In this document: piece by piece, positions 4,195-36,068 of the stretch
How positions within the stretch are numbered: position 1 is the stretch's first letter
How the letters are laid out: every line of letters starts with the position of its first letter
Sequence record: DRR378314_1618
Reading direction: 5' to 3' (one strand)
Length of the DNA stretch: 39,844 nt
Notes under the pieces: model-generated
Databases searched by the model: none
What the model saw: the letters and a program-made list of their open reading frames with translations, nothing else
Told to the model about the DNA's origin: nothing
Position numbers and translations under genes: made by a program

Positions 4195-4252
4195 AGTGTT
4201 CCCCTTTCCCGTGGTGTCTGGAATCACTATCCCCCCGGCCCAGTGCGGGCGA

Positions 4253-4293
4253 TAGTCCAGAAAGTGGAGCGCCAGCGGCACTGAAAAGGACTA
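4253..4293. promoter_or_regulatory. Possible HxlR-type operator (TAGTCC...GGACTA inverted repeat)
   Basis: TAGTCC at 4253-4258 and GGACTA at 4288-4293 in the divergent nitrilase/HxlR intergenic region. Confidence 0.3.
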
Positions 4294-4338
4294 GGATGAA
4301 AGTTCGGGGCACTCACGCCGCCCAGGGAGCCAAAGCCC

Positions 4339-5016
4339 ATGACCAACTATGGACAGTTCTGCACCGTTGCCCGGGGCTCGGAAATACTCGGGGAGCGATG
4401 GACACCGCTGGTGGTGAGGGAGCTGCTGTGTGGCAGCACCCACTTCAACGAGATACGGCGGGGGTTGCCAAGAATGTCAGCAACGCTCCTGGCCCAGCGT
4501 TTGAAAAAGCTTGAGGAAGTGGGCGTGCTTCGCCGCGTGCAGGAGGGCAACAACCAGGAGTATGTGCTTACACCGGCCGGTGAGGAATTGCGCCCGATCA
4601 TCCTGGCCATTGGTCACTGGGGGGCACGATGGATTGGCAGCCGCTTGCAGGCAAACCAGCTCGATGCCGGCTTCCTGATGTGGGATATCCGCCGTTTCGC
4701 ACACATTGACGAATTCCCCTCTGACCGCAAAGTGGTCATTCACTTTTTCCTGAACGACGCCCGGCAACGGGAGCGGCACTGGTGGCTGGTGGTTGCCAAC
4801 GGCGAGATCGACCTGTGCCGTGAAGATCCCGGCCACGAACTGACCCTGGTGGTCGAGGCCAGCGTCGCCAGCCTGACCGAAATCTGGACCGGCGACAGCG
4901 ACCCGGATGCCGAGCAGCAGGCGCGCCGCCTGCTCGTGCGTGGCGGCAGGCGGGATACTCGGGACCTATGGCGGTGGCTGGGGCGGAGTGTGTTTGCCGC
5001 TAGCAAAGCCCGCTGA
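4339..5016 (+). CDS. HxlR family winged-helix regulator with SCP2-like C-terminal domain
   Basis: YGQFCTVARGSEILGERWTPLVVRELL...FNEIRRGLPRMS; C-terminal WWLVVANGEIDLCREDPG. Confidence 0.9.
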   Translation: MTNYGQFCTVARGSEILGERWTPLVVRELLCGSTHFNEIRRGLPRMSATLLAQRLKKLEEVGVLRRVQEGNNQEYVLTPAGEELRPIILAIGHWGARWIGSRLQANQLDAGFLMWDIRRFAHIDEFPSDRKVVIHFFLNDARQRERHWWLVVANGEIDLCREDPGHELTLVVEASVASLTEIWTGDSDPDAEQQARRLLVRGGRRDTRDLWRWLGRSVFAASKAR

Positions 5017-5078
5017 AAAAGGGCCAGCGGGTGGAGGAGGGCCAGCGGAACGCCTTTAAACAAGTTTCGCATCTTCTG

Positions 5079-5125
5079 CCGTAACAAACCCGTAACAAGC
5101 CTGAAGCACAATCTGGTGTATACCA
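5079..5125 (+). promoter_or_regulatory. Pho-box-like repeats, -10 element and PhnR/GntR operator of the HAD gene
   Basis: CCGTAAC-aaac-CCGTAAC (5079-5096), 10 nt, CACAAT (5107-5112), then TGGTGTATACCA (5114-5125). Confidence 0.7.
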
Positions 5126-5137
5126 AAGGAGTGCTAC

Positions 5138-5803
5138 ATGCTTGCGATTTTCGACCTGGATGAAACCCTGATTCGCGGAGACAGTTCACAGTTGTTCACC
5201 GAATTTCTCCGTGCCGAAGCTATTGATATCACCCCCGATTCCGAAGCCAGGGACATAGCATTCATGAGGGCCTATACCGACGGCCATCTGGATCTCCAGG
5301 ACTACATGGAATACAGCCTGGCTCCTATTCGGGGTTGGCCGCGGAACGAGGTGGAGGCGCTGATTGATCGGTTCGTTACGGAAGTGATCCCTCCCCGCGT
5401 GCTACCTACCGGCCAGGAACGGGTAGCCTGGCACAAGGCCCAGGGGCATGAGGTACTGATCATCTCCGCGACGGGAGAACACCTGGTCTCTCCCATCGCC
5501 CGACACCTTGGCATTGATGACGACATCGGCGTGCAGGTGGAATGGCAGAACGACAATCTCAAAGGGACCATCGGAACACGGCGCCCCTTCAGGGACGGCA
5601 AAGTGTCTGCCCTCAAAGAGTGGATCGCCGCCCGGTCAGCCACCCCTGAGAAGGTCTGGTTCTACTCGGATTCCCACAATGACCTCCCCCTTCTGCGCTC
5701 GGTGGACTATCCCGTTGCCGTGAACCCGGACTCGGTTCTGGAAGACTATGCCAGGCGACAGGGTTGGCGTGTGCTTATTGATAGAGCTTCGCCCTCCCCT
5801 TAA
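5138..5803 (+). CDS. HAD-IB (SerB-like) family hydrolase/phosphatase
   Basis: AIFDLDETLI, IISAT, DGKV and FYSDSHNDLPLL...AVNPD motifs; AAGGAG RBS. Confidence 0.92.
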   Translation: MLAIFDLDETLIRGDSSQLFTEFLRAEAIDITPDSEARDIAFMRAYTDGHLDLQDYMEYSLAPIRGWPRNEVEALIDRFVTEVIPPRVLPTGQERVAWHKAQGHEVLIISATGEHLVSPIARHLGIDDDIGVQVEWQNDNLKGTIGTRRPFRDGKVSALKEWIAARSATPEKVWFYSDSHNDLPLLRSVDYPVAVNPDSVLEDYARRQGWRVLIDRASPSP

Positions 5804-5819
5804 ATAGGCGGGCGAGCCA

Positions 5820-6725
5820 TTACCCCAGAACCACCAGCAGCAGACCTGCAAGAATGATCAGCACACCCAGAATCTTGGGCGCGTGCAGGGGTTCCGCAAG
5901 AAAATACCAACCCAGTGCAACGCCGATAGGTATGCTGACCTGCCGGAAGGCCACCACGTAGCTGACGTCATCCGCATAGGCCATGGCCCAAACCACCAGC
6001 GCGTAGGTTCCGAGGATCAGTACTCCCGCTGCCATGGTACTGCGCCAATTCGAGACCAGTTCCCTTAAAAGCCGTCGTTCGGTTACTTGCAGCCCCAGGC
6101 CAAGGCTAAGCCACCCTAGGGCTGACCATGCCTGGAGGATCACAAACACCAGGGCCACCTCCGCATCCAGTACGATGCCTGCCAGCAGGTCTCGCATCTG
6201 GCCGGTGGCATTGTCGTCGACGAGCGAGTATCCGGCGGTACTGGCGGCGGCCAGGAGGGCGAACAGGGTGGCAAGGTTGCGGTAGTTGGCCAGGCGAAAA
6301 TCCCGGAACCGTTGCATTGGCAGAATGATGCATCCGGCCACGATCAGAACGATACCGGCAACAGCCGCGGCGGTGATGGTTTCAGTCGTTCCCAGGAACA
6401 GGGTTCCAACCAACAGGATCAACAGGGGCGAGGATCGCGCCAGCGGATAGACCACTGACAGTTCGCCATGGCGATAGGCCGCGGCCAGGCAACTGAGATA
6501 GGTTGCCTGGAAAAAACCGGTGGCAACCACCAGCCACCAGATGCCCGAATCCAGTTCACGCAATAGTGGGCGGTAGTACACCAGCACTGGCAGGGTCAGG
6601 AGCGCGCCCCACAGGGTGCTGTACCAGAAGAACGCGCCGCTGGGGCTGACCTTCTTACCAAACAGGTTCCAACCGGCATGGGCGAGTGCGGACACCAGAA
6701 CAATAACAATCGCCGTAGAGGTCAT
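5820..6725 (-). CDS. EamA/DMT family membrane protein, phosphonate-utilisation-associated type
   Basis: ~10 hydrophobic segments; SALAHAGWN, AYRHGELSVVYPLARSSP and VSYVVAFRQVSI; last gene of the AEP transporter operon. Confidence 0.85.
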   Translation of the reverse strand: MTSTAIVIVLVSALAHAGWNLFGKKVSPSGAFFWYSTLWGALLTLPVLVYYRPLLRELDSGIWWLVVATGFFQATYLSCLAAAYRHGELSVVYPLARSSPLLILLVGTLFLGTTETITAAAVAGIVLIVAGCIILPMQRFRDFRLANYRNLATLFALLAAASTAGYSLVDDNATGQMRDLLAGIVLDAEVALVFVILQAWSALGWLSLGLGLQVTERRLLRELVSNWRSTMAAGVLILGTYALVVWAMAYADDVSYVVAFRQVSIPIGVALGWYFLAEPLHAPKILGVLIILAGLLLVVLG

Positions 6726-6744
6726 GGGGCTTCAGGCTGCGTGC

Positions 6745-8505
6745 TCATTCCACACCCTGCCGCCACGCCCGGGTAGAACGGTCCACCCAGAAACGCAGTA
6801 CCCCCTGGATGAGTTTCGCCACTGCACAGGTTGCCGTGATCAGGATGGCCATGGCCGCCGCCGGGGCGATATCACCGGCCTCGTCCATGTTCAGCACGGC
6901 CACCGAAGCCAACTGGGAGTCGTGGCCGTAAAGGAACACAACCGCTGAGACTGTGGTCATCGCATTTACGAACAGGTAAAGGGCGACATCCAGGATGGCC
7001 GGCAGGCACAGGGGCAAGGTAACCGTGAAAAGCACCCGCCATCGGGAGGCGTTGAGCGACTCCCCCACCGCCTCGAATTCCTGATCCAGTTGCTTCAGCG
7101 CCGTGACTGCCGTGAGGTGGGAAACCGCGTAGAAGTGCGTGACAGTGCAGAGGATCAGAATGAACAGGGTGCCGTAAATGCCATTAATCGGGTTGTCCGG
7201 GTGGTTGAAGAAAAAGATATAGGACAGCCCCAGCACAAGGCCGGGAACCGCCAGCGGCAGCAGCGAGAGAAACTGGAATACCCCGGCCAGCAGCCTCGAC
7301 TGTGGTGTTCGTTCCATCAGCCAGGCGTTAAAGAAGACCAGTGCGGTTCCGAGCACCATGGTGCCCAGGGCCATCTGCAGGCTGTTGGTGTAAGCCCCCC
7401 AACCGCCGCCATCCATACGGCCGAATTGGTAGTTGTTCAGGCTAAGGTCAAGGTTGTAGGGCCAGAAGGTAACGAACGACGCATAAATCGCCATGCCGAT
7501 GATGGCGAAAATGAACACCACGGTCGGCGTCAGCATCAGCGCTCCCACGGCGTCCCGATTGCGATCCTGGCGGGGCCTGTAGGGCACGGATCTGGCCGTG
7601 AAGCTTGCGGATTGTTTGCGCTGCACATAGCGGTCGGCGATGAATGCCAGCATGGCGGGCAATAGCAACAGCACGCTGACCACCGCGCCCATCTCGAATT
7701 TCTGCTGCCCGATCACCTGCTTGTAGATATCCGTGGCCAGTACGTCGAACTGCCCGCCAATGACTTTGGGCACGCCGAAATCCGTAATCACCAGCGTGAA
7801 CACAACAAACCCGGCACTCACCAGACCATAGCGGGCGCCGGGCACCGTTACTGTCCAGAAGGTGCGCCACGGGCTGGCCTTCAAAGCGGTGGCGGCTTCG
7901 TAATGGCGCCCATCGGCGTTGTCCATCGCCGTCAGCAGAATCATCAGGGCGTGGGGAAAGGTCCAGAAGCAGGACCCCATGATAATGCCAATGGGCCCAT
8001 AGATTTCAGCGCCGAACAGCCAGCTTTTCAGTACGCCCTGGTTGCCGAACAGGTACACCAGGCTGATCGCCGGCAACAGCGACGGCGCCAGGATCGGCAA
8101 CACCAGCACGCCACGAATCCAGCCGGTGAATGGCAAACGCGTGCGGGTCAGCGCCCAGGCCGCCATGAAGGCCAGCGAAACCACAATCACGGTGCTAAGC
8201 CCGGCCACCCACAGGGAATTGAAGAACGCGGATTCGATACCGCCGGTACTCAGGTAGTAGGCAAAGTTTTCCAGCCCGACAAATTCACCGGCTTTGTTCT
8301 CGACGCTCTTTGAAAGCAGTGTGTATAGGGGCGCGAGCACCAGCAGTGTCAGAACCACGCAACCGATTACCAGAAGCAGTGCAAACACCCAACGGCCGGC
8401 AAGCCTCCGGCGTAATTCCGCCAGGTTTGGCCAGTTGCGTGTGGTCGGTGTCGAAAGCGCGGGAGAATCAATCATGGAGAACTTACCAGGGTTAGACTCA
8501 GACAT
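6745..8505 (-). CDS. aepW: 2-aminoethylphosphonate ABC transporter permease (PhnU2/AepW, two fused permease domains)
   Basis: Two EAA loops (HYEAATALKAS, EFEAVGESLNAS); SLVYLFGNQG; DFGVPKVIGG; operon context. Confidence 0.9.
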   Translation of the reverse strand: MSESNPGKFSMIDSPALSTPTTRNWPNLAELRRRLAGRWVFALLLVIGCVVLTLLVLAPLYTLLSKSVENKAGEFVGLENFAYYLSTGGIESAFFNSLWVAGLSTVIVVSLAFMAAWALTRTRLPFTGWIRGVLVLPILAPSLLPAISLVYLFGNQGVLKSWLFGAEIYGPIGIIMGSCFWTFPHALMILLTAMDNADGRHYEAATALKASPWRTFWTVTVPGARYGLVSAGFVVFTLVITDFGVPKVIGGQFDVLATDIYKQVIGQQKFEMGAVVSVLLLLPAMLAFIADRYVQRKQSASFTARSVPYRPRQDRNRDAVGALMLTPTVVFIFAIIGMAIYASFVTFWPYNLDLSLNNYQFGRMDGGGWGAYTNSLQMALGTMVLGTALVFFNAWLMERTPQSRLLAGVFQFLSLLPLAVPGLVLGLSYIFFFNHPDNPINGIYGTLFILILCTVTHFYAVSHLTAVTALKQLDQEFEAVGESLNASRWRVLFTVTLPLCLPAILDVALYLFVNAMTTVSAVVFLYGHDSQLASVAVLNMDEAGDIAPAAAMAILITATCAVAKLIQGVLRFWVDRSTRAWRQGVE

Positions 8506-8523
8506 TCGGAACTCCGCAGCCCG

Positions 8524-9594
8524 TCATGCGGCGAAGCAATGCAGGGCGTCGGAAGGCAGGTTGAGGCAGATACAGCCACCAACGCGTAGATCAAGCCGAC
8601 GCGCGGAACGTGGGTCCACATCCACCACAAGGTCCAGCTCAATGTCACTCAGGCGAATGTGGGTGCGGATGAATGCGCCCAAATAATCCAGGGCCTGGAC
8701 CTCCCCTTCCCATTCACCATCGCCGCTGGGTAAGAGGTGGACATCTTCTGGCCTGATCGCCAGTTGGATACATCCCTCGGCTGTGGGCAACGGCCGAACC
8801 AGGTCCAGTTCCCGATTCCCGACCTTTACCCGTTGTCCATTCAGTGGGGCGCTGTCGATAAAGTTCATGGCACCGATGAAGGAAGCAACAAACGCCGACG
8901 CGGGTTGCTGGTAGATGTCCAGGGGCGTTCCCACCTGTTCGATAACGCCGTTGTTCATAACCACTACCCGGTCTGCCATCGCCAGGGCTTCTTCCTGGTC
9001 GTGGGTAACCATGATGGTGGTGACACCCAGTTGCTTCTGGAGGCTGCGGATTTCGCTGCGCAGGTGGTGGCGCACTTTGGCATCCAGCGCCGACAGCGGC
9101 TCGTCGAGCAGCAACAGCCCCGGCGAAGGCGCCAGGGCGCGTGCCAGAGCCACACGTTGCTGCTGGCCACCGGACAATTGGGCAGGGTATTTGCTGGCCT
9201 GGTCTTCCAGCCCAACCAGGGCCAGTAGCTCGTCGACCCGGCGACGGACCTGAGCCTTCGGCATGCCAATACTGCGCAATCCGTAGGCGATGTTGTCGGT
9301 GACCGTCATGTTCGGAAACAAGGCATAGGACTGGAACACAATGCCAAAATCCCGGTCCCTGGGCGGCTTCAGGGAGATGTCCGTCTCGCCCTGGTGGAGT
9401 ATCCCTCCACTCTGGTGCTCAAGCCCCGCAATGATGCGAAGCAGGGTGGTCTTCCCACATCCGGATGGCCCGAGGAAACACACCAACTCACCGGGTTCGA
9501 TGGTGAGATTGATGTCCTTCAGCGCGCAAAAGTCGCCAAAGAACTTGTTCACGGCCTGGATTTCCAGACGGCTTCCCTGGGTTTTGTGGTTCAT
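8524..9594 (-). CDS. aepV: 2-aminoethylphosphonate ABC transporter ATP-binding protein (PhnT2/AepV)
   Basis: GPSGCGKT, LSGGQQQR, LLLDEPLSALD and a TOBE-like C-terminus. Confidence 0.92.
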   Translation of the reverse strand: MNHKTQGSRLEIQAVNKFFGDFCALKDINLTIEPGELVCFLGPSGCGKTTLLRIIAGLEHQSGGILHQGETDISLKPPRDRDFGIVFQSYALFPNMTVTDNIAYGLRSIGMPKAQVRRRVDELLALVGLEDQASKYPAQLSGGQQQRVALARALAPSPGLLLLDEPLSALDAKVRHHLRSEIRSLQKQLGVTTIMVTHDQEEALAMADRVVVMNNGVIEQVGTPLDIYQQPASAFVASFIGAMNFIDSAPLNGQRVKVGNRELDLVRPLPTAEGCIQLAIRPEDVHLLPSGDGEWEGEVQALDYLGAFIRTHIRLSDIELDLVVDVDPRSARRLDLRVGGCICLNLPSDALHCFAA

Positions 9595-9622
9595 GGTACC
9601 CCCTGCTCTTGAATAATCTGGT

Positions 9623-9646
9623 GCGGCGCCCGAAACCGGGCACCGC
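9623..9646 (-). other. Intercistronic stem-loop downstream of the binding-protein gene (mRNA-stabilising or attenuating)
   Basis: On the - strand GCGGTGCCCG-GTTT-CGGGCGCCGC forms a 10-bp stem with one U-G pair and no U tail. Confidence 0.45.
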
Positions 9647-9680
9647 TTTGGCTTAACGGGCTAGCGCCCGATCCGCCGAC

Positions 9681-10694
9681 TCACTTTGCTTCGGATTTGC
9701 CGTCGTAGCGACGCGCCCATTCAGTCAGGATGGCCTCACGGTTGCTGGCCGCCCAACCAAAGTCGTTGTCGATGATCAGCTCGTCCGCGTTCTCCGGGAA
9801 ATACTTCACCGGCTGTGCCACACCTGGCATGCCCACGATGGCGTAGCCTTCGTTGTACATTTCCATGGCCTTGCGGGTGATGGACCAGTCAACCAGCGTT
9901 TGTGCGGCTTCCATCTTGTCCGTTCCATCAACAATGGCAGTCGCTTCCACTTCCCAGCCCAGGCCTTCTTCAGGGAACACCAGTTCCAGGGGTGCGCCCT
10001 GTTCCTTCAGACGGGCACCACGGAAGGCGAAGGAAACGCCGATGGTGGTCTCGCCGGAAGCCGCCATCTTGCAGGGCTTGGAACCGGAGTGGGTATAACG
10101 GCTGATGTTATCGTGCAGCCCATCCATGAATTCCCAGCCCTTGTCCTCACCCATCATCTGAAGCCAAGCAGAGACATCAAGGAAGCCGGTACCGGAAGAG
10201 TTCGGGTTTGGCATAACCACATGGCCCTGGTAAACCGGCTTGGTCAGATCCTCCCAGCTGGTAGGCATTGGCAGGTTGTTGTTCTCGGCTTCGATGGTGT
10301 TCACACAGATGGCGGCCATCCACGCATCCATACCCACCCAGGAAGGCGTTTCATCGCGGTCGCGGAACTTCGGAGACAGTTTTTCCAGCCCTTCCGGCGC
10401 ATAGGGAACCAACATACCTTCGTTTTTCAGCAGCAACAGGCTGGTGCCGGCCAGTCCCCAGACCACATCCGCCTGCGAATTCTGTTTTTCCGCCAGCAGG
10501 CGCGCCGTGACGACACCGGTGGAATCGCGAACCCAGTTGATCTTGATGTCCGGATGGTCCTCGTTGAAACGCTCGGCGTACTTCTTGAGGTCCTCTGCTT
10601 CAACCGCTGAGTACACGGTCAGTTCGGTCTGGGCATTGGCGTTGATGGCAACGGCAAGTGTGGTCAGGGCAAGGGCTTTCTTGAGGTGTTTCAC
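9681..10694 (-). CDS. aepX: 2-aminoethylphosphonate ABC transporter substrate-binding protein (PhnS2/AepX)
   Basis: GTG start with AAGGAG RBS; signal peptide; WVRDSTGVVTARLLAEK, MPNPNSSGTGFLDV, YTHSGSKPCK; adjacent to phnWX. Confidence 0.93.
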   Translation of the reverse strand: MKHLKKALALTTLAVAINANAQTELTVYSAVEAEDLKKYAERFNEDHPDIKINWVRDSTGVVTARLLAEKQNSQADVVWGLAGTSLLLLKNEGMLVPYAPEGLEKLSPKFRDRDETPSWVGMDAWMAAICVNTIEAENNNLPMPTSWEDLTKPVYQGHVVMPNPNSSGTGFLDVSAWLQMMGEDKGWEFMDGLHDNISRYTHSGSKPCKMAASGETTIGVSFAFRGARLKEQGAPLELVFPEEGLGWEVEATAIVDGTDKMEAAQTLVDWSITRKAMEMYNEGYAIVGMPGVAQPVKYFPENADELIIDNDFGWAASNREAILTEWARRYDGKSEAK

Positions 10695-10736
10695 GCAAGT
10701 CTCCTTTTACAGGGTCAGGTTGAGGCACTCTTTTTC

Positions 10737-10808
10737 TGGTCTATACCAGTTTCGATCACCACTACCTTAGGGCTATTTGATTGCAAAGACGTGACAGCCA
10801 TGTGACGT
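10737..10808 (-). promoter_or_regulatory. Pho box, -10 element and PhnR operator of the transporter operon
   Basis: - strand: ACGTCAC-atgg-CTGTCAC-gtct-TTGCAAT (10808-10780), 10 nt, TAAGGT (10769-10764), TGGTATAGACCA (10748-10737). Confidence 0.8.
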
Positions 10809-10823
10809 TTCCTTGGCCGTCGC

Positions 10824-11651
10824 TTACGGGCGCTCACCCGCTTGCAAGCGGCGACCGATATCGGCGAGCACGTTTGGCAAATCCGCAATGGAGTCAATCA
10901 CATAGTGAGCGGCTGACTGCGCCATAACACGGTGCCCGCGGGCGAGGATGTCCGCTCGCTCTGCGTCGTCGAGGGCGGAAAGCTGCTCTTCACTGAGCCC
11001 GACCGCATTCCCGGATGCCACCACCGCCACCGTCCACATGCCGGCGTTCAGGCCTTCTTCAATTCCCGTGGTGGTGTCGTCAACTTTTACGCAGCCCTGA
11101 ACGGCGGTAATACCCAGTTCGAGCGCATTCTTCAGGCTCATATGGGGTGCGGGCCTTCCCTGGGGCACTTCCGTTGCCACCACAACGCTTTCCGGTTCGA
11201 AGCCCTGGGTAGCCAACCCCGGCAGCATCACCTTCACCATTTCGCGGCTGTACCCGGTATTCACACCAAGCCTGATGCCCTGTTCACGAAGTTGCTCCTG
11301 CAGAGCCAGGGCGCCGGGAATCAACTTTGTGCGTTCAGCGATGGCGGCTGTTTGCAGCGGCAGGAAGGCGTCGTAGAGTCGATCAATATCAGGGCTTTCA
11401 GGCTCACTACCGAAGGTACTGCGCCACTGGTTACGGATTCGTGGCATGGCCAGCAGGCGGCGGATGTGTTCGCGTTTTTCGGTGCCCATGGGCTCACGGG
11501 CTTCCGCTTCAGACAGGTCGATACCCTCTGCTTCAAACAGCTTCAGAAACGCCTGGATGGGCGCCAGCGATCCAAAGTCCACGCAGGTGCCGGCCAGGTC
11601 CATAATCACCGCCTGGAGCGGCCCGGTGTATCGACGGGTGTAGGTATGCAT
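10824..11651 (-). CDS. phnX: Phosphonoacetaldehyde hydrolase (phosphonatase)
   Basis: DLAGTCVDFGS, PMGTEKREH (Schiff-base Lys), GRPAPHM and KVDDTTTGIEEGLNAGMWTV. Confidence 0.96.
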   Translation of the reverse strand: MHTYTRRYTGPLQAVIMDLAGTCVDFGSLAPIQAFLKLFEAEGIDLSEAEAREPMGTEKREHIRRLLAMPRIRNQWRSTFGSEPESPDIDRLYDAFLPLQTAAIAERTKLIPGALALQEQLREQGIRLGVNTGYSREMVKVMLPGLATQGFEPESVVVATEVPQGRPAPHMSLKNALELGITAVQGCVKVDDTTTGIEEGLNAGMWTVAVVASGNAVGLSEEQLSALDDAERADILARGHRVMAQSAAHYVIDSIADLPNVLADIGRRLQAGERP

Positions 11652-11670
11652 AACATTCTCCCTTCAGGAT

Positions 11671-12822
11671 TCAGACGGTTTCGAGGTTGTCCGGTGCGAC
11701 GGCGGGCGCCGGGACGGGTATCGACAGGCCGAGCTCCTGGCAGGCCTCGGCAATCGCGGTAATAACGGCGTCAATCTGCTCATCGTGGAGCTGGCCAATG
11801 CAGCCCACCCGAAAACTGTCCGCCACGGTGAGTTTGCCGGGGTAGATGAGAAAGCCACGAGCCTTGATCGAGTCGTAGAAGTGACGGAATTCAAACGCCG
11901 GGCTGTTCGGCGACAGGAAGGTGGTGATGATCGGCGACAGCCACTCATCCGCCAGCAAGGTCCGGAAGCCGATCTCACGAAGGCCAGCCACCAGGCGGTC
12001 TCGATTGCGGCTGTAACGGGCCAGACGACCGCTCACTCCACCCTCGGCTTCGTGTTCACGCATGGCCTGGAGAAAGGCAGCCACCACATGGGTGGGCGGG
12101 GTGTAGCGCCACTGCCCGGTTTTCTCCATGTATTGCCACTGATCATGGAGATCCAGGGACAGGCTGTGGCACTGGCCGGCTGAAGCCGACAACAAATTCC
12201 GTTCGACAATGGCGAACCCGAACCCCGGAACACCCTCGAAGCACTTGTTGGCGGAGGACACGAGGGCTGCACAGGGCAGCTCGGCCACATTGACCGGCAA
12301 GGCTCCAAAGGCGCTCATGCTGTCGATAATCAGGCGCTTGCCGGCCTCGCGGCACACCTCGGCAATGTCTTTGATCGGATTGAGAATGCCGGAGCTGGTT
12401 TCACAATGAACCACCACCACCTGTTCGATCTCGGGATGCTCTTTCAAGGCAACGGCAACTTCGTCGCCGCGCGGCGGGTGGTAATCCCCCTTATCAATGG
12501 CCAGATACGGGCGCCCCAACGTGTCGAGGATCTTGCCGATGCGCTGACCATAGGCACCATTCATCAGTACCAGAGTCGTACTGGCTGGTGGAATCACCGT
12601 GCCAAGCGTGGCTTCCACCGCGAAGGTGCCACTGCCCTGCATGGGCACGCAAACGTGGCTTTCCCTACCGCCAGCCACGTCGAGCAGCCGCTCACACATT
12701 TCGGCCGTTAGGCCATTGAAGTCGCCGTCCCAGGAGCCCCAGTCGTGCAACATGGCCTGTTTCACGGAGAGGCTGGTGGTCAATGGACCGGGAGTGAGCA
12801 AATAGGGATCTTTTGGGGTCAT
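11671..12822 (-). CDS. phnW: 2-aminoethylphosphonate--pyruvate transaminase
   Basis: [70 protein letters not shown] at 12822 has GGAG RBS (ORF call starts at 12834). Confidence 0.96.
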
Positions 12823-12839
12823 GAAGGTCTCCATCGGGA

Positions 12840-14072
12840 TTAGCCAGTGCGTTTCCGGGCGCGCGCCTCGGCGCAGCGGAAGATGAAATCGGGACTGCAG
12901 GAATCAATGGCTCCGAAGCGATCCAGGCGGAACGGTTCGGAGGGCACAAAGGGGCGCTGGTTGGTGGCCCGCTCAGCGATAAACCGCCCTATACCACCGG
13001 ACATGCCGATGCCCGCTCCGGAGCAACCGGTGGCGGCGATGAAACCCTCGACACCAGGCATAGAGTCCAACAGGGGAAAACCATCGGGGGTGTAGCTGGA
13101 CACATTACTGACGTAGTGAGCCAGCTTTAACTCGTCCAGCACAGGGAGCTGGGAGCGAAGAGCCTCATAGCCGCTTTCAAGAGCAAGCTCACCCGTCGGA
13201 TCGGTGTCGAAGCGAAAGCCCTGAAGGTTATCCGGTAAGGTTTTTGGATGAGCCACGACCGATTGCGGATCTCGCAACCCGAATAACAAGCCACCCACTT
13301 CCGGGCGCGCATAGGCGCCGCTATCGGGCAAAATGGTTATCGGGCCGTTGGTGGGCACCGACGGGTGCGGCGCTGATATCCAGTAATGACTGCGAACTGG
13401 CGCCATGCCAAGGTGGATATTCGCCTGCAGCGCCAGCGCAGTGCTCCAGGGGCCGGCCGCGTCAATAACGGTTCCGGCGGAGATCATTTCGCCGTCGGCG
13501 AGGCGCACGCCAGTCACCCTCGAGCCTTGCTGCAGGAGCTCGCTGACCGTTCGTTTGAGAAGAAACCGGGTGCCGTTTCGCCTGGCTTCGGCCGCATAGG
13601 CCAAGCAGAGCGTGTAGGGATCAATGTAACCATCATCCGGCAACCACAAGGCGGAGGTCTCGGACGTCAGCTCAAGCCAGGGAGCCAGCCGCATGCCTTC
13701 ACCCGCGCTGATCTGCTCCGCGGACACACCGGCATCCGCTGCCCGTTGCGCCATCTGCTCGATCTGCTGCCGCCCCTCCGGTTTGGCTGACACATTCAGG
13801 CTGCCCACCCTTCGCAGGGGCAACGGTTGGCCAACGCTGTTTTCCAGCTCGTCGATGGCACGAAACGTTTCCATCACCATGGCCGTCAGCACCCGGTGGG
13901 GGCGAACCCGGGTCAGCAATGCCGCTGCGTGGCTGGTGGTTTGTTCACCCAGCCCGTGGCGCTCAACAACGACAACACCAAGGCCAGGCGTCCGGCTCAG
14001 GTATCGGGCTATGGCGCATCCAAGGATGCCGCCGCCAATGACGACGATATCCGGATGATGGGTTGTGGGCAT
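12840..14072 (-). CDS. FAD-dependent amine oxidoreductase (DAO family, resembling the sarcosine/dimethylglycine dehydrogenase FAD domain); candidate N-methyl-AEP oxidase
   Basis: [31 protein letters not shown] and [10 protein letters not shown]; first gene of the phnWX operon. Confidence 0.85.
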
Positions 14073-14090
14073 GATTGCTCCTCGCTCATC

Positions 14091-14146
14091 TGGTATAGAC
14101 CAGTCTGGCGAGAAACTGTGACGGTTTTATGAATACCCGATGACAG
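14091..14146 (-). promoter_or_regulatory. Pho box, -10 element and PhnR operator of the oxidoreductase-phnW-phnX operon
   Basis: - strand: CTGTCAT-cggg-TATTCAT-aaaa-CCGTCAC (14146-14118), 10 nt, CAGACT (14107-14102); operator TGGTATAGACCA on + strand at 14091-14102. Confidence 0.8.
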
Positions 14147-14169
14147 GACCGTGTCGCAGGGCTGGGTGA

Positions 14170-14898
14170 TCAGTTGACCTCGACCTGAATGCTCAGGGCG
14201 TCGTGCAGCCAGAATTCTTCATCAAACTCCACGAAGCACCCTTCGGCGTCGTGACTGCAACGGGTTACGTAGAGTCCAGCCGTACCTGCCGTCACGCCGA
14301 TCGCATTTGCCTGCGGATCAACCAGAGCCGTCGGGTACATTTCAATGCGCTTACCCTGCAATTCCACCCCGTATTGCTCACGCAGCAGTTTCCAAAGGGA
14401 GCGATTGAAGTCATAGGTTTCAATGCCTGGCAGGCGTTTCGGGTTCAGGTAGATGTTCTCGACCAACACCGGTCGACCATCGATCTGCCGGCGCCTGCGG
14501 AGCCATACAATCGGGTCGCCGACGGCCAGGCCGGTTTTCACCGCGAGCCAGGCATTGATTTCAGTGGGTGTGACATCCAGGGTTTCGGTCGCCGGAACGC
14601 GCCCCTGGGAGGTGACATTATCGGAGAAACTGTAGTCCTGGGTGGGTTTGTAGATCAGCCGTGGCGGCGAAACAAACCAGCCTCGCCGGTTGGAACGGTA
14701 TATCCTGCCCTCGGCTTCCAGCTGGGCCAGCGCCAGCCGGGTGGTCACACGCGTGGTGCCGTGTTCATCCGCCAGGATCCGCTCTGAGGGCAGACGGGTA
14801 TTGGGCGTTAACGACCCCTCCTCGATCTGGATCGCCAGTTGATCCCGCACTCTCATATACAGAGGCGCGGTGCCTTCCCCGACCAACCGCTCTTGCAT
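14170..14898 (-). CDS. phnR: GntR/HutC-subfamily (UTRA) phosphonate utilisation regulator
   Basis: ATG at 14898 with GAGGAG RBS; RLPSERILAD...TTRVTTRLALAQLEAEGRIYRSNRRGWFVSPPRLIY; UTRA domain ending EFDEEFWLHDA. Confidence 0.88.
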   Translation of the reverse strand: MQERLVGEGTAPLYMRVRDQLAIQIEEGSLTPNTRLPSERILADEHGTTRVTTRLALAQLEAEGRIYRSNRRGWFVSPPRLIYKPTQDYSFSDNVTSQGRVPATETLDVTPTEINAWLAVKTGLAVGDPIVWLRRRRQIDGRPVLVENIYLNPKRLPGIETYDFNRSLWKLLREQYGVELQGKRIEMYPTALVDPQANAIGVTAGTAGLYVTRCSHDAEGCFVEFDEEFWLHDALSIQVEVN

Positions 14899-14929
14899 AC
14901 TCTCGCTCCTCAGTTCAACAAAACCATCC

Positions 14930-14963
14930 ACAATAGGACCGCAAGGTGACGCCAGTATGACAA
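14930..14963 (-). promoter_or_regulatory. Pho box and -10 element of phnR (no operator palindrome)
   Basis: - strand: TTGTCAT-actg-GCGTCAC (14963-14946), 10 nt, TATTGT (14935-14930). Confidence 0.72.
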
Positions 14964-15017
14964 AGCACCGGCCTGTTTCGTACCGGGCGCTCGTGCTGTC
15001 CCGCCCCCGCTCCAATG

Positions 15018-15053
15018 AAAAAACCCAGGCCCGGTAAAACGAGGGCCTGGGTT
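15018..15053 (-). terminator. Rho-independent terminator of the metallophosphoesterase gene
   Basis: - strand: AACCCAGGCCC-loop-GGGCCTGGG followed by TTTTTT. Confidence 0.8.
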
Positions 15054-15085
15054 CTGACGGCTACTCTGCCGTGAAAACGGCGATG

Positions 15086-17515
15086 TCAGTACAACAGGTT
15101 TAGGGAGAGGTTGTCGAAGTAGACGTCGTTATCGCTGCCTGCTTTGCGCTCGCCACCCATGTAAACCCTGATGCTGCGAACACCGACAGGCAGGAATCCA
15201 TCCAGCCCCTGCGTCTCCCAACTTTTAACGGAAGAACTGGTTCGTGTTGCCGATTTGCCCCACTCGATCGGCTGATCGCTGCCATCCAGCAGTTCTACCC
15301 TGAGTTCGGGCACATCGTCGGCGGACCAGGTGGTCATACGGGCTGAAAGCTCAATGTAAACCTTACCGGCATCGATATCCGCCCCATAACCGGAGACATC
15401 CACAGTTTGATAGGCCGTGTCGGTACAACAGTCTCCAGGCTGACCCTGCCCAAAACCACGCCCCGCGAAGTAAAAGTCCCCCTCATCGGCGGCGAAACCG
15501 CCGTTGTTGGTCGCAGTGATCGCGCTGATGAGGCCACCTGTAAGCGTCCACCCAGTAAGATCGCCCGCTTCGGCATCACCGTTGGCCAGCAGATTGGATG
15601 TCCGGGTACCGGCCAAACTGAAGCTGTAACTGTTGCTCCACGTCGACCAGTTCATCTGCTCATCGCGGACTCTGGCACGCCAGTAGTAAGTGGTACCGGG
15701 TTTGAAGCTCAGCGTGTGGCGCGGCTGGCCGCCGTATGCATCGTAGGCCGAGGTATGGGTATTCTGTGAGTCAAAGCGCTTGTTCCAGCGGTAATAGTCA
15801 TCCCCGCCCGGGCGCACGGTCTGGCTGTCCAGCAGCGCGGACAGATCAAGCCGGAAGATGTCTGCCCCTTGCTGGGTATCGACCGCTTCATAACCGAGGT
15901 ATTCATCGCCACCTACGCGAGATGCCTCGTCATAGAAAAAGTTTTGCCGCCGGGTTTCGTTGCCCCAGATGTCGAACACCGTGCCCTCGAAGGTTTCGCT
16001 CTCGGAAACCTGCCACTGAACTTCGTGGACCTGCTCGGGCGCACCGACGTTGATGCCCAGCTCGATCTCCGTCGCGGACAGCTCGCCAGTACCTGCGGTA
16101 GCCTGCGGCAGGTTGTCGTTCGTAGCCGCAGCGAACGTTACCTCGTCCACCACCTCGAAGTCCGTGTCTCCGTCGTAACCGCCTTTCTTGCGCTGCAGCG
16201 TCACCGAAGCCTCGGGGCCGAACCGATAGGTCAGCACGCTGTAGCCGAACTCGCTCCGGCTAACCTCAAAGGTGTCGTAGTCGCTGATCTGATTGTTCTG
16301 GTGGTCAGCACTGTCCAGCGGTTCAATATACCCGGAGGCGCTGGCCGCATTGAGCCACAAGTGCGGTGTATTCAGGGACTGCCCTCGTGAGTAGGCATGT
16401 GTGTGACCAAAGAAGTGACCTGTCACGGCCCCGGTGTTTTCACTGTACTGTTCCAGCTCTGACACCATTTCGCAGGAGCCAATACTCTCCCCAACGTTCC
16501 ACATTTCTGACAGACAGCCGTGGTGGAACATCCCCATCACAAACGTCTTCTGCTGTATCTCGGCATCCCTCAGGGTTTCTCGCAACCACTGGCGCTGCAC
16601 CGCCAGCGTCTCACGGTTAAAGCTGCCATGGGCACCCGATATCGGATAGCTGTCCAGGCCGACCAGGCGAAGGTCCAGATAGTCCAGAAAATACCAGTGG
16701 TCTTCGTAACCAACAGAACCATTGTCAGGTGGTGACATGTAGGTTCGATAGAGTTCCAGCTCGGCGTTGGAGTAATAATCATGGTTGCCAGGTACGGTGA
16801 CCAGAGGCACGTAGGGTGTGATATCGGCCATCCGCCCGAACAGCTGCTCTCGCCAGTGCGACCGTTCGCCACCGGTCTGTACCACGTCTCCCGAGATGGT
16901 GATGGCGGCAATATTCTCGGCACAGGTCTCGGGCTGGGAGCCGTCGCATTCCTCCATCATGAAACCGGCGGAGACCACGTTGTTCAGCACGACCTCATAG
17001 ATTTCCCGGTCCAGTTGGGTGTCGCTCAGGGCAATGAATCGGGCTTCGGTGACATCATCGCTGTCATTGGGCCAGGTCTTGAAGGCGAACGCCTGGGTTA
17101 CTCGCTGGTTGTCCTCGACGTCCTTAGTGGTTACGTAGTACTCGTAAAGGGTATTGGACACCAGGCCCGACAGGACCGAGCGGTAAACCAGCCCATCCGC
17201 GGAGTGAATCTCTGCTTCAACTTTCTTGAATTCCTCACCCGAACCGAATGCACGGGCCCATACTTCCGGCTCGGTGTTCTCGGTTTCAAACATCACCGTC
17301 ATGGTGTCGCTTCCGGGTGCCTGCAAATAAGGCCGAACGATGAAGTCCGGACTTTCAGCGGCTTGCGGCGGTGGCACGGCAATCGGATCAGGATTGCCGG
17401 GCACTTCCGCGCCCGGACCAGGATCAGGATCAGACTTTGAATCAGAACCGTTGCATCCTGCTAACAACAGCGCAGAAGCGCTCAAAGCCAGCAAGGTTCG
17501 GTAAGAGATGAACAT
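15086..17515 (-). CDS. Lipoprotein metallophosphoesterase (purple acid phosphatase/calcineurin-like), with FN3-like and C-terminal beta-sandwich (CBM/FBA-like) domains, 809 aa
   Basis: ATG at 17515 with AAGGAG RBS; lipobox LLLAG-C; Pro-rich linker; PYLQAPG N-domain; LSDTQ, GDVV, GNHD, MFHH and GHTH motifs; TYYWRARVRD; NLLANGDAEAGDLTGW...YFDNLSL. Confidence 0.85.
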   Translation of the reverse strand: MFISYRTLLALSASALLLAGCNGSDSKSDPDPGPGAEVPGNPDPIAVPPPQAAESPDFIVRPYLQAPGSDTMTVMFETENTEPEVWARAFGSGEEFKKVEAEIHSADGLVYRSVLSGLVSNTLYEYYVTTKDVEDNQRVTQAFAFKTWPNDSDDVTEARFIALSDTQLDREIYEVVLNNVVSAGFMMEECDGSQPETCAENIAAITISGDVVQTGGERSHWREQLFGRMADITPYVPLVTVPGNHDYYSNAELELYRTYMSPPDNGSVGYEDHWYFLDYLDLRLVGLDSYPISGAHGSFNRETLAVQRQWLRETLRDAEIQQKTFVMGMFHHGCLSEMWNVGESIGSCEMVSELEQYSENTGAVTGHFFGHTHAYSRGQSLNTPHLWLNAASASGYIEPLDSADHQNNQISDYDTFEVSRSEFGYSVLTYRFGPEASVTLQRKKGGYDGDTDFEVVDEVTFAAATNDNLPQATAGTGELSATEIELGINVGAPEQVHEVQWQVSESETFEGTVFDIWGNETRRQNFFYDEASRVGGDEYLGYEAVDTQQGADIFRLDLSALLDSQTVRPGGDDYYRWNKRFDSQNTHTSAYDAYGGQPRHTLSFKPGTTYYWRARVRDEQMNWSTWSNSYSFSLAGTRTSNLLANGDAEAGDLTGWTLTGGLISAITATNNGGFAADEGDFYFAGRGFGQGQPGDCCTDTAYQTVDVSGYGADIDAGKVYIELSARMTTWSADDVPELRVELLDGSDQPIEWGKSATRTSSSVKSWETQGLDGFLPVGVRSIRVYMGGERKAGSDNDVYFDNLSLNLLY

Positions 17516-17530
17516 CGGACTCTCCTTTGT

Positions 17531-17602
17531 TGGTATATACCAGAATTGGTACATACCAATTTAAGGGGATTAGATGTCATTTCGGTGATCTTTATGTTGC
17601 GG
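17531..17602 (-). promoter_or_regulatory. Tandem PhnR-type operators, -10 element and degenerate Pho-like repeats of the metallophosphoesterase gene
   Basis: TGGTATATACCA (17531-17542) and TGGTACATACCA (17547-17558); - strand TAAATT (17563-17558), preceded at 10 nt by CCGCAAC-ataa-AGATCAC-cgaa-ATGACAT (17602-17574). Confidence 0.75.
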
Positions 17603-17733: not shown

Positions 17734-18222
17734 TCACTCGAGGTTGACGAGTATCTCCATCGGTTTCTCATCGCAGTTGTGCCCGGGCCCACCACGGTCC
17801 ACCACCAGGAATTCTCCCTCGCGGTCCAGAACCGAATGGACCGCATGCCAGGTACCCGCCCGGTAGTTAATGCCCTGGTGCCCGTCGGTGATGAACGCCC
17901 GCACGCTCTGCGGGTCAATCGCATCTCCGGGTGGTGCCACCACAACCAGGAACCGCTCGCCACGCAGGGGGATGAACGCCTGGCTGCCAAGAGGGTGACG
18001 TTCCAGGCATTCAACCGCCAGAGGCACCTGTACCGGCTGGCTCACGAAGATGCTGATCAAAGGCCTGGCGCCCTCTCCCAGGAGCTCAACGCTGGCTAGG
18101 TCGTGGTGGCGCTGTGTTCGCCCGCCATTGATGGGGAATGAGCTGGCACGCCGACTATCGATCACGTCGCCGAAGGGCGTGAAGGCTTCCAGAGTGAGCG
18201 GCTGGGCTGTCAGGTTCAGCAT
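17734..18222 (-). CDS. allA: Ureidoglycolate lyase
   Basis: PLTLEAFTPFGDVI, INGGRTQRHHDLA, ERHPLGSQAFIP, QGINYRAGTWH, FLVVDRGGPGHNC. Confidence 0.94.
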   Translation of the reverse strand: MLNLTAQPLTLEAFTPFGDVIDSRRASSFPINGGRTQRHHDLASVELLGEGARPLISIFVSQPVQVPLAVECLERHPLGSQAFIPLRGERFLVVVAPPGDAIDPQSVRAFITDGHQGINYRAGTWHAVHSVLDREGEFLVVDRGGPGHNCDEKPMEILVNLE

Positions 18223-18243
18223 CGTTGTCGTCCTTAAACGGGT

Positions 18244-20030: not shown

Positions 20031-20098
20031 AAATACGTGTCCTCAATCGACTTCGAGGGTTTGATTGTGTGGCTACTTATCACCACGACGTCACATTA

Positions 20099-20270: not shown

Positions 20271-20312
20271 TACTTATTGTTTTGTTCACCACATATTTCA
20301 ATCGGGGAAACC

Positions 20313-35315: not shown

Positions 35316-36068
35316 TTAACCCAGGTGAGCCCGGTCGATTTCCATACCGAAACGGAACCGGTCACCGCGATAAAAGAGGTTTTCATAGAGCAGAGGCTCG
35401 CCAGAGCCATCCAGAATTGTTCGCTCGATGTGCAGTGCGGCGCTGCCCGGCTCCATGGTCAGAAAGCTGGCAAGCTCTCCGTCACAGATCATGGATTCGA
35501 GATTGACCCGGGCTGACGCGATGGCGATCCCACAGTCGTTTTCAATCACATCGAACAGATCCCGCTGTTCGAGGTCGGCATTGTTAAAACCGTCACTGAC
35601 GTGGGTGGGCGCATAGGTGATATCGAAGGCAAGGGGTTCGCGGTTCAGGTATCGCAGCCTCTGAATCCGCGTAACACGAGCCCCAATGGGGAGCCCGAGG
35701 CAACTCGCCACGTTATCCTTGGGTGTTTCTGTGGTGATCGAGATCAACTTGGAAAACGCTTCCTGGCCAATGCTGGCAGCGCTTTCGCCAAAGCCTTTCA
35801 ACGTCGACACATCAAACTGGGCTTTGGGCATGGACACAAACGTGCCCTTGCCATTGATCTTGAATATCAGGCCGTCCCGCTGAAGTTGACTGAGCGCCTG
35901 ACGGATGGTGATGCGGCTGACCGAAAACGCCTCGATCATCTGTCTTTCACTCGGCAGTTTCTGGTGAGGCGCATAGGTACCGTCCAGAATTTTCCGCCGG
36001 ATGCTCTCTTTGACCTGCTGGAAAAGAGGCATCGGTAGCACACTTACATCGCTGAATTGGTTTTCCAT
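35316..36068 (-). CDS. GntR/HutC-subfamily (UTRA) regulator
   Basis: PLFQQVKE, KLPSERQM, VSRITIRQAL, GKGTFV; UTRA domain ending FYRGDRF. Confidence 0.92.
   Translation of the reverse strand: MENQFSDVSVLPMPLFQQVKESIRRKILDGTYAPHQKLPSERQMIEAFSVSRITIRQALSQLQRDGLIFKINGKGTFVSMPKAQFDVSTLKGFGESAASIGQEAFSKLISITTETPKDNVASCLGLPIGARVTRIQRLRYLNREPLAFDITYAPTHVSDGFNNADLEQRDLFDVIENDCGIAIASARVNLESMICDGELASFLTMEPGSAALHIERTILDGSGEPLLYENLFYRGDRFRFGMEIDRAHLG

Follow-up and report, generated by a model that had tools for sequence, protein, structure and literature searches.

A predicted PhnR regulon for 2-aminoethylphosphonate utilisation in a Marinobacter, with additional phosphoesterase genes and a possible hand-over between HutC-type regulators

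Introduction

Which genes does a bacterium place under its aminophosphonate repressor, and from which other regulator may some of them have been taken over? This question is raised by a stretch of 39,844 bases from sequence record DRR378314_1618 (the window, meaning the whole stretch that was analysed), whose host we read as a marine Marinobacter. Here, genes for import and catabolism of 2-aminoethylphosphonate (AEP), a regulator gene of the HutC subfamily of GntR proteins (phnR) and two phosphoesterase genes lie together with copies of the palindrome TGGT-N4-ACCA. Much of the natural AEP is bound in lipids and glycans, as stated in the sections considered of two papers (PMC8316502, PMC9311074), and the characterised AEP pathways begin with the free compound.

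In this study, we followed up a preliminary description of the locus, made from the sequence alone, which had read it as a PhnR regulon of four units with two extra phosphoesterases. That reading appears to be largely right, with four corrections. We consider it probable that the window carries the AEP utilisation regulon of a Marinobacter, in which PhnR would control four units, PhoB would provide a second input and the box at 17547 would be a relic of the operator of a paralogous HutC-type regulator, here called GntR2.

Results

Operator boxes and the genes behind them

The pattern TGGTNNNNACCA has exactly five matches in the window, at 5114, 10737, 14091, 17531 and 17547, which reproduces the positions and sequences given in the preliminary description. 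All five are intergenic, lie 12–43 nucleotides (nt) ahead of a start codon, and four of them are TA-centred. Shuffles preserving the dinucleotide composition gave a mean of 0.57 matches and none of 100 reached five; the five boxes are non-random. They are given below together with their distance to the start codon and, where it applies, to the ribosome-binding site (RBS).

5114..5125, palindrome: PhnR-type box TGGTGTATACCA, TA centre; ends 12 nt before the ATG of the HAD gene (5138, + strand) and abuts the RBS
10737..10748, palindrome: PhnR-type box TGGTATAGACCA (coding strand); ends 42 nt before the GTG of aepX (10694, - strand)
14091..14102, palindrome: PhnR-type box TGGTCTATACCA (coding strand); ends 18 nt before the ATG of the flavin adenine dinucleotide (FAD) oxidoreductase gene (14072, - strand)
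17531..17542, palindrome: PhnR-type box TGGTATATACCA; ends 15 nt before the metallophosphoesterase start and abuts the RBS
17547..17558, palindrome: box TGGTATGTACCA (coding strand); ends 31 nt before the metallophosphoesterase start; by position the homologue of the promoter-proximal GntR2 operator

When one mismatch was allowed, the window gave 38 matches against 14.8 expected. Beyond the five exact boxes these are scattered and mostly lie within genes, and none was found upstream of phnR; they were not considered further. The genes concerned are the following.

5138..5803, + strand: HAD-IB family hydrolase, cytoplasmic, with DxDxT at residues 6–10 (PF12710; TIGR01490)
5820..6725, - strand: EamA/DMT membrane protein, last gene of the aepXVW unit (PF00892)
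6745..8505, - strand: aepW, AEP ATP-binding cassette (ABC) importer (TIGR03262)
8524..9594, - strand: aepV, AEP ABC importer (TIGR03265)
9681..10694, - strand: aepX, AEP ABC importer (TIGR03261)
10824..11651, - strand: phnX (TIGR01422, above cut-off)
11671..12834, - strand: phnW (NF010006/TIGR02326, above cut-off)
12840..14072, - strand: FAD amine oxidoreductase, first gene of the phnWX operon (PF01266, E 2.5e-60)
14170..14898, - strand: phnR, HutC-subfamily GntR regulator with winged helix-turn-helix (HTH) and UTRA domains (PF00392, E 8e-15; PF07702, E 1.5e-28)
15017..15056, - strand: hairpin with T-run, resembling an intrinsic terminator, 3' of the metallophosphoesterase gene; read from the sequence and absent from the list of a terminator scan with a loop limit of 8
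15086..17515, - strand: metallophosphoesterase lipoprotein of 809 aa (Metallophos and Pur_ac_phosph_N Pfam domains, motifs, AlphaFold2 model, Foldseek)

The Pfam and NCBIfam matches agree with the gene identities proposed earlier. Binding protein, ATPase and fused permease of the importer all pass their equivalog models (TIGR03261 with 534.5 bits, cut-off 392.75; TIGR03265 with 492, cut-off 457.7; TIGR03262 with 787.3, cut-off 593.25), and the best NCBIfam match of the EamA protein is TIGR03340, 'phosphonate utilization associated putative membrane protein', at 198 bits, below the cut-off of 288. Oxidoreductase, phnW and phnX are spaced by 5 and 19 nt. For the metallophosphoesterase gene we place the probable start at 17515 and not at the longest-frame start 17554, because it is the one that goes with the RBS AAGGAGAG and a lipoprotein signal ending in LLLAGC. 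The hairpin and T-run behind this gene suggest that it stands alone and that phnR has a promoter of its own.

As had been described before, a HutC-type, PhnR-like regulator lies beside the boxes: the GntR and UTRA gene at 14170..14898, whose best NCBIfam match is TIGR03337 (phnR), followed by the PhnF model with 95.9 bits. The core GT-N-TA-N-AC that the same description ascribed to HutC-subfamily sites corresponds to the consensus GT-M-TA-K-AC stated in the part considered of Suvorova, Korostelev and Gelfand 2015 (PMC4494728). The boxes are best read as operators of this adjacent HutC-type repressor PhnR.

Conservation and rarity of the TA-centred box

A scan for relatives of PhnR returned 17 loci, all from Marinobacter and with 73–98% identity, one of which (L017) holds a truncated phnR only, without the cluster. 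A class-wide sample, in which 3 of 400 genomes (G001 among them) had a PhnR match at E <= 1e-40 and one further genome stayed unscored, was too sparse, so that the family level was used; two loci, L041 and L042, were inspected briefly. Genome-level comparisons cover the genomes behind the PhnR loci and 263 genomes of the same family, 24 of which have a PhnR of at least 71% identity, in one case a truncated copy. The set on which conservation was judged comprises 22 loci with a full-length PhnR, 71–98% identical to that of the window.

The neighbourhood of PhnR, phnW/phnX and the AEP transporter recurs in these 22 related loci, and in every one of them the catabolic operon is headed by TGGT-[ACG]TA[CGT]-ACCA, including those in which the oxidoreductase gene is missing or a remnant and the box stands before phnW (L001, L008). 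Ahead of aepX, the exact TA box is likewise found in 22 of 22 loci; of the 16 that cover the start of the HAD gene, 14 have it there. The flanks vary in the alignment, and the box and a few promoter blocks are kept. Loci in which these genes lie apart from phnR (L047, L048, L050, L051, L053) have the box as well. Conservation of the motif upstream of orthologues, which the preliminary description had proposed to look for, was thus found in Marinobacter for the catabolic operon, aepX, the HAD gene and the metallophosphoesterase gene.

Concerning the oxidoreductase, the closest relative (L001, PhnR 98% identical) has it reduced to an N-terminal remnant behind the kept box, followed by phnW (L001:10797-11082), and L008 has no oxidoreductase gene at all. 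The gene is a dispensable accessory of the cluster.

Four more distant loci (L061, L062, L064, L066), with a PhnR of only 39–50% identity, keep TGGTCTATACCA (on the strand of the gene) ahead of aepX. Their genes run in one direction in the order phnR, box, aepXVW, phnW, phnX, eamA, in one case the oxidoreductase, and HAD last; L061 has a second such box ahead of phnW. The preliminary description had placed the HAD gene outside the pathway cluster, a view which does not fit its place in these relatives. Because it closes the co-directional string in all four of them, the HAD hydrolase is a regular member of the cluster; in Marinobacter its gene is inverted and carries its own box.

In ten Marinobacter genomes, the strict form TGGTVTABACCA occurs at 60 sites (4–10 per genome), compared with 15 for the reversed control, and promoters of this gene set account for 42 of them. 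Thirteen of the other 18 were inspected: ten fall into long open reading frames (four of them at the same spot of one conserved frame of ~440 aa), one precedes thrS, one is CTAG-centred and lies ahead of an unrelated gene, and one is ambiguous. The five remaining sites (G462 C9 and C10, twice in G485 C3, and G633 C7:52849) are TGGTGTACACCA or TGGTCTACACCA, 12-mers shared with six intragenic sites elsewhere. None of the TA-centred sites outside the gene set was accepted as an operator, owing to their location inside long reading frames and, for the thrS site, to its occurrence in one genome only. The preliminary description would have given up its reading had the motif turned out to be common genome-wide; in these ten relatives it is not.

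Two of the outlying sites deserve a separate description. At L040:3001-3012 (G003), an exact TGGTCTATACCA lies ~38 nt ahead of a gene starting MPVITLPDG, which we take to be threonyl-tRNA synthetase (thrS); this site, present in a single genome, is probably due to chance. At L084:4015-4026 (G561), the palindrome TGGTCTAGACCA lies between an Exo_endo_phos-family and an Nmad3-family gene, with a CTAG centre unlike both box types discussed here.

We regard it as a negligible possibility that the palindromes arose by chance or have some other function, for instance as terminators or as sites of an unrelated factor. TGGT-N4-ACCA is a HutC-type core common to many regulators, according to the part of PMC4494728 considered, but the shuffles never reached five boxes, the position of the box is kept across 22 loci despite diverging flanks, and 42 of the 60 strict sites belong to one gene set.

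The metallophosphoesterase promoter and the paralogue GntR2

The metallophosphoesterase promoter differs from the others in carrying two boxes. Within the 263 family genomes, the gene has 20 orthologues with 63–96% identity (70% for the one in L015) and one distant match, and the comparison covered all of their loci. In 12 of the 20 orthologous loci a second HutC-type regulator, GntR2, 34–36% identical to PhnR, is encoded divergently from it, and the intergenic region holds two CG-centred boxes (TGGT-NCGN-ACCA) 79 nt apart, one near each gene. CG-centred boxes are the sole boxes in six genomes whose best PhnR-like protein is 40–51% identical. Where a PhnR of at least 71% identity is present, a TA box follows 4 nt past the proximal box, abutting the RBS, in 13 of 14 loci, as against none of six in the genomes without; counting the window, this becomes 14 of 15 against 0 of 6 (Fisher p = 1.3e-4, for genomes that are not phylogenetically independent).

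The centre of the proximal box varies together with the presence of GntR2: it is CG in 11 of the 12 loci with GntR2 and in 0 of the 9 without (p = 3.4e-5). Six of these nine GntR2-less loci (the window, L043–L047, L015, L049 and L051) have a box with another centre at the proximal position, namely ATGT, AGGT (two loci), GGGT, GGGC or ATCT, and three have no box there. The latter, L015, L049 and L051, show a single TA box only; in L015 and L049, the divergently encoded neighbour of the metallophosphoesterase gene is phnR itself. The two groups of regulators are also set apart consistently in sequence: the recognition helix reads TTRVT[AT]R in PhnR and VSRV[NS]AR in GntR2, and the wing RRGW as against R[IMVL]GW in 9 of 10.

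Because of its positional homology and the covariation of the box centre with GntR2 presence, we read the box at 17547 as the proximal operator of the paralogue by position and descent, with a drifted centre, whereas the box at 17531 would be of the PhnR type. From the regulon of five PhnR operators that had been described at the outset, four TA boxes at four units remain, all of them conserved, and the fifth is homologous to a GntR2 operator.

It should be noted that the five boxes could also all be working PhnR operators, with the tandem pair binding two PhnR dimers cooperatively. The boxes at 17531 and 17547 are 16 bp apart from centre to centre, all six GntR2-less loci with a box at the proximal position (the window and L043–L047) have kept its TGGT and ACCA arms while the centre drifts, and the rows compared of PMC4494728 give precisely this 12-mer, TGGTACATACCA, among the PhnR sites predicted for Psychromonas, Vibrio cholerae and other vibrios. 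We nevertheless regard this arrangement as rather doubtful. The 17547 box is positionally homologous to the CG-centred operator beside GntR2, the centres AGGT, GGGT, GGGC and ATCT of the relatives match no Marinobacter PhnR box in the alignments, and L015, L049 and L051 manage with a single TA box.

A further explanation would leave the metallophosphoesterase gene outside PhnR control altogether, with a GntR2-type paralogue encoded elsewhere in the genome reading both boxes and the TA box as a variant site. GntR2 does neighbour this gene in 12 of the 20 orthologous loci, and the window is the only part of the strain's genome examined, which leaves room for such a gene. In the eight relatives without adjacent GntR2, on the other hand, no second PhnR-like match at E <= 1e-20 exists genome-wide, and neither the window nor their loci contain a GntR2 gene or fragment. 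The confinement of the metallophosphoesterase TA box to genomes with a close PhnR and the arrangement of L015 and L049 also speak for PhnR, so that we consider control by a distant paralogue very unlikely and keep to the reading in which PhnR acts at 17531 and 17547 descends from a GntR2 operator.

Several loci show variations around these genes. L048 (10539-12572, G633) has a shorter metallophosphoesterase paralogue in tandem behind the first, with its own box pair TGGTAGGTACCA and TGGTGTAGACCA. In L051 (G462, contig C12), far from phnR, the metallophosphoesterase, an extra aepX and an extra HAD gene are each TA-boxed, and a phosphodiesterase gene of the NPP type adjoins. In G637 (L065:10598-10609), a box TGGTATCGACCA stands ahead of phnR itself, without counterpart in the window and most relatives; G637 is, besides, the single exception in which the metallophosphoesterase promoter lacks a TA box. 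In the window, the position held by GntR2 in L001 and L004 is filled by an allantoin/ureide-type gene set directly upstream of the metallophosphoesterase promoter (17734-24829), consisting of ureidoglycolate lyase, a bicupin, a polysaccharide-deacetylase-family protein, an Asp/Glu/hydantoin racemase, two NCS1 permeases and an FCD-type GntR regulator.

Pho-box-like repeats and promoter layout

Direct 7-bp repeats at 11-bp spacing, which replace the -35 element and end about 10 nt before the -10 element, form the layout of PhoB-dependent promoters, as in the E. coli consensus. The preliminary description of the promoters was incomplete in this respect, as it overlooked Pho-box-like repeats at all five promoters, that of phnR included. 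The repeats and the -10 hexamers, the latter as candidates of our own reading, are as follows.

5079..5096, + strand: HAD promoter, repeats CCGTAAC-aaac-CCGTAAC; GTMAY-N6-GTMAY match at 5081-5096, conserved in the alignment
5107..5112, + strand: HAD promoter, candidate -10 CACAAT, 10 nt past the repeats
10764..10808, - strand: aepX promoter as a whole, with three repeats ACGTCAC-atgg-CTGTCAC-gtct-TTGCAAT at 11-bp spacing and the candidate -10 (alignment and pattern match)
10764-10769, - strand: aepX promoter, candidate -10 TAAGGT
14118..14146, - strand: catabolic (oxidoreductase) promoter, repeats CTGTCAT-cggg-TATTCAT-aaaa-CCGTCAC (alignment; looser pattern)
14930..14963, - strand: phnR promoter, repeats TTGTCAT-actg-GCGTCAC and candidate -10 TATTGT, no PhnR box (alignment and pattern match)
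17563..17591, - strand: metallophosphoesterase promoter, weaker repeats AGATCAC-cgaa-ATGACAT (sequence and alignment)
17558-17563, - strand: metallophosphoesterase promoter, candidate -10 TAAATT

For the oxidoreductase promoter, we read CAGACT as the candidate -10. The repeats are conserved at their 11-bp spacing. Ten nucleotides further on comes a hexamer whose second base is A and whose sixth is T; that of aepX varies as TAAGGT, TATGGT, TAATGT or TAAAGT in most Marinobacter rows, with L015, L016, L049, L051 and L065 as exceptions. GTMAY-N6-GTMAY has three matches in the window, all of them in these promoters and in the right orientation. As an outside check, the region upstream of a PstS-family gene was compared in five Marinobacter genomes, all of which have GTAACAAAG[CT]TGTCA[CT] at a distance of ~95 nt from the start, the family assignment resting on TIGR02136 matches of 130–140 bits, below the cut-off.

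The -10 elements that had been described at the boxes can be upheld in part: a sigma-70 scan finds none, and TAnnnT-like hexamers are present by our own reading only. Reckoned from these candidates, the PhnR box overlaps the -10 or start region in the HAD and oxidoreductase promoters and lies ~9–20 nt downstream of the start in the aepX and metallophosphoesterase promoters. Both placements would be repressor positions.

The additional enzymes

The HAD protein passes the TIGR01490 model (151.2 bits, cut-off 98.3) and carries FDLDET at residues 5–10. The nearest named enzymes are histidinol-phosphatases of the HAD-IB type, to which the protein is related but not assigned, as it falls below the equivalog cut-offs (NF052360 with 197.6 against 280, NF052359 with 193.6 against 400). 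Its nearest PDB structure is the uncharacterised 3fvv, and neither the PDB nor the ESM Atlas, with its HAD and putative histidinol-phosphatase clusters, indicates a specific substrate. With low confidence, we suggest that it may be a cytoplasmic phosphomonoesterase acting on an amino-alcohol phosphate.

The metallophosphoesterase matches PF16656 and PF00149 and shows the motifs SDTQ, GD, GNHD, HH and GHTH, of which motif I, SDTQ, departs from the usual form. The predicted metal ligands D165, D210, N244, H245, H331, H371 and H373 are invariant in 49 homologues. All 89 homologues found are generically annotated, no NCBIfam model matched, and a sequence search against solved structures returned only a weak match of 34 residues. 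In the AlphaFold2 model (mean predicted local distance difference test score 89.7), Foldseek matches the first ~460 residues to plant purple acid phosphatases (3zk4, E 2.6e-20) and to PhoD (2yeq) and the last ~170 residues to sugar-binding beta-sandwiches, namely F-box sugar-recognition domains and glycoside hydrolase modules. The middle part is FN3-like, and the C-terminal beta-sandwich resembles a lectin or carbohydrate-binding module. By domains, motifs and fold, the protein is a purple-acid-phosphatase-like lipoprotein; its recruitment would have taken place in Marinobacter.

A second type of secreted enzyme is found in relatives. G633 has two tandem genes for lipoprotein phosphodiesterases of the NPP family (PF01663) at L080:3630-7273, located at 5192-7210 and 3630-5033. 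An exact TA box, a -10 and Pho-box-like repeats precede each of them, and a concanavalin-like lectin domain is present in one. Orthologues in G462, G005, G528 and G479 show the same layout with one-mismatch boxes, and in four of the five genomes (G462, G005 and G479 included) the NPP-type gene adjoins the HAD gene or a copy of it. Because TA boxes stand at both the purple-acid-phosphatase-like and the NPP-type lipoprotein genes, secreted phosphoesterases of two unrelated folds appear to have been drawn into one regulon. In L091 and L094, which belong to large genomes with GntR2 and without a close PhnR, TGGTGGAGACCA lies ~190 nt ahead of an NPP-like homologue of 36–37% identity and may be the site of another HutC-type regulator.

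Evidence weighing against the regulon

A number of results weigh against the regulon as proposed. With regard to the regulator, PhnR reaches 251.8 bits on TIGR03337 and stays below the curated cut-off of 296.75. With regard to its operators, the HAD gene has no box of its own in two loci, L015 and L016, where it lies ~80 nt behind an NPP-type phosphodiesterase gene on the same strand that carries the one-mismatch box TGGCATATACCA at the usual position; L055, a metallophosphoesterase locus in a genome with PhnR, has no TA box; and the genome-wide rarity of the box was established in ten relatives, not in the genome from which the window comes. The absence of GntR2 in this strain likewise holds for the window, and a copy elsewhere in the genome is possible, and the 12-mer at 17547, listed as a PhnR site for Vibrio and Psychromonas, may still bind PhnR.

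The remaining points concern the PhoB input. The Pho-box pattern was chosen after these promoters had been viewed, and its enrichment is modest, with 0.76 matches expected and 3 of 100 shuffles reaching three. A looser form gains the oxidoreductase promoter but also two unrelated places, the metallophosphoesterase promoter fits the pattern poorly compared with the other four, and the scan for consensus sigma-70 promoters gives no promoter-like site at any box.

Further neighbouring genes

On the - strand at 29087-36068, the window contains a second HutC-type regulator with GntR and UTRA domains (35316..36068), which heads a string of genes for an ABC ATPase, a TauE-like protein, an M20 peptidase, a permease, an NMT1-like binding protein and an amidase. 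As this region has no TGGT-N4-ACCA box, the regulator at 35316..36068 must use another operator.

Discussion

The computations establish that the boxes exist, that they are conserved and rare genome-wide, and that the box centre covaries with the regulator present. Building on these results, we propose a model in which a PhnR dimer would bind TGGT-[ACG]TA[CGT]-ACCA at sites that overlap the likely transcription start or follow it closely, and repress four units, the oxidoreductase-phnW-phnX operon, aepXVW-eamA, the HAD-IB gene and the metallophosphoesterase gene. With Pho-box-like repeats at the -35 place of these four promoters and of phnR, transcription should need both PhoB and the release of PhnR. 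Without phosphate starvation, none of the products would be made, PhoB being needed. Under starvation, PhnR itself would be made and would keep the structural genes off until a ligand derived from an aminophosphonate appears, which amounts to a likely AND gate of phosphate starvation and aminophosphonate. PhnR binding, repression, PhoB dependence, the nature of the inducer and the enzyme substrates are what we infer from the sequence in this model.

For the metallophosphoesterase gene, GntR2 would have been the original regulator, to whose promoter Marinobacter added a PhnR box. In such a hand-over the PhnR box would be gained beside the operator of the paralogue, and the paralogue would be lost afterwards. 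The locus thereby offers a natural case of regulator hand-over between HutC paralogues, and the paired promoters are a natural test of how two such paralogues discriminate operators by two central bases.

We also put forward, tentatively and as a minority view of our own, a reading that goes further: secreted lipoprotein phosphoesterases of two folds, under PhoB and PhnR, might cut AEP off phosphonoglycans or phosphonolipids before import by AepXVW, the HAD-IB enzyme might take a co-imported phosphorylated amino-alcohol, and the metallophosphoesterase promoter might record the hand-over. Such a release function, which we infer, would fit the occurrence of AEP bound in glycans and lipids and the lectin-like modules, present in the window metallophosphoesterase and in one of the two NPP-type genes examined. 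Three types of uncharacterised enzyme travel with the PhnR box in several arrangements, the purple-acid-phosphatase-like lipoprotein, the NPP-type lipoproteins and the HAD-IB hydrolase. A literature search below full-text level gave no publication that connects a secreted phosphoesterase with an AEP regulon, and the main value of the present work lies in concrete, assayable candidates for freeing bound aminophosphonates.

Regulator and motif are not new in themselves. The operator of the preliminary description is not newly defined, since supplementary file 1 of PMC4494728 (HutC sheet, of whose 158 PhnR rows we compared rows 31-150) already lists TGGT-N4-ACCA sites for PhnR orthologues as well as both paralogues in Hahella; the PhnR operator and the two-paralogue picture are prior computational predictions. 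Within these rows, such sites, for the most part TA-centred, are predicted in Salmonella (STM0430), Klebsiella, Aeromonas, Vibrio, Psychromonas, Caulobacter, Acinetobacter and Hahella, with CTGGTATAGACCAA as the site of Salmonella STM0430 and Klebsiella. HCH_00465 of Hahella has CG-centred sites before itself and HCH_00466, HCH_03089 the TA-centred CTGGTATAGACCAG before HCH_03088-03080, and the HTH strings and boxes of our loci L056 (CG group) and L062 (TA group) are identical to these Hahella rows. The table contains no PhnR row from Marinobacter; the name has 0 occurrences, and the Maqu_ rows belong to other regulators. With these predicted regulons, the window shares the type of regulator beside phnWX and AEP-transporter genes, the palindrome and several sites per locus. 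It differs from the rows compared in the PhnR box that stands beside the box of a paralogue at the metallophosphoesterase gene, with the gene of the paralogue absent from the window, and in the HAD gene having its own box; this part of the table gives no interpretation of the enzymes and no Pho boxes.

The logic of nutrient stress and substrate, with aepXVW and phnWX as targets, has counterparts in other bacteria. In Pseudomonas putida BIRD-1, induction of the AEP genes by PhoBR and by the substrate was shown experimentally, and the phnSTUV-phnWX genes of Salmonella belong to the Pho regulon under a two-input logic (Jiang et al. 1995, as cited there), as described in the sections considered of Murphy et al. 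2022 (PMC9311074). The substrate regulators of P. putida are, according to the same sections, activators of the LysR type (AepR), whereas the window would use a HutC-type repressor, with dual control predicted from its promoters.

Like the PhnR of the window, PhnF of Mycobacterium smegmatis, a repressor, belongs to the HutC family. Its operator is reportedly the 12-mer quoted in the preliminary description, which is identical to the window box at 14091. The two regulators are set apart by their scores, as the window protein reaches 251.8 bits with the model for PhnR and only 95.9 with that for PhnF. The target of PhnF, phnDCE, is a phosphate transporter that does not carry phosphonate, according to the part of a review that we considered.

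Finally, work of the Peracchi group (PMC10590968, PMC12366243) describes, in the parts available to us, ancillary enzymes of AEP clusters, namely PbfA, PbfB/C/D and an NAD-dependent racemase. A term search within these parts found no HAD-IB hydrolases, secreted phosphoesterases or GntR regulators. The FAD oxidoreductases PbfB/C/D oxidise N-methyl-AEP to phosphonoacetaldehyde, and the PF01266 oxidoreductase of the window, standing in an AEP cluster ahead of phnWX, fits this class. With these studies, the regulon proposed here has in common the idea that recurrent neighbours of the core pathway broaden its substrate range.

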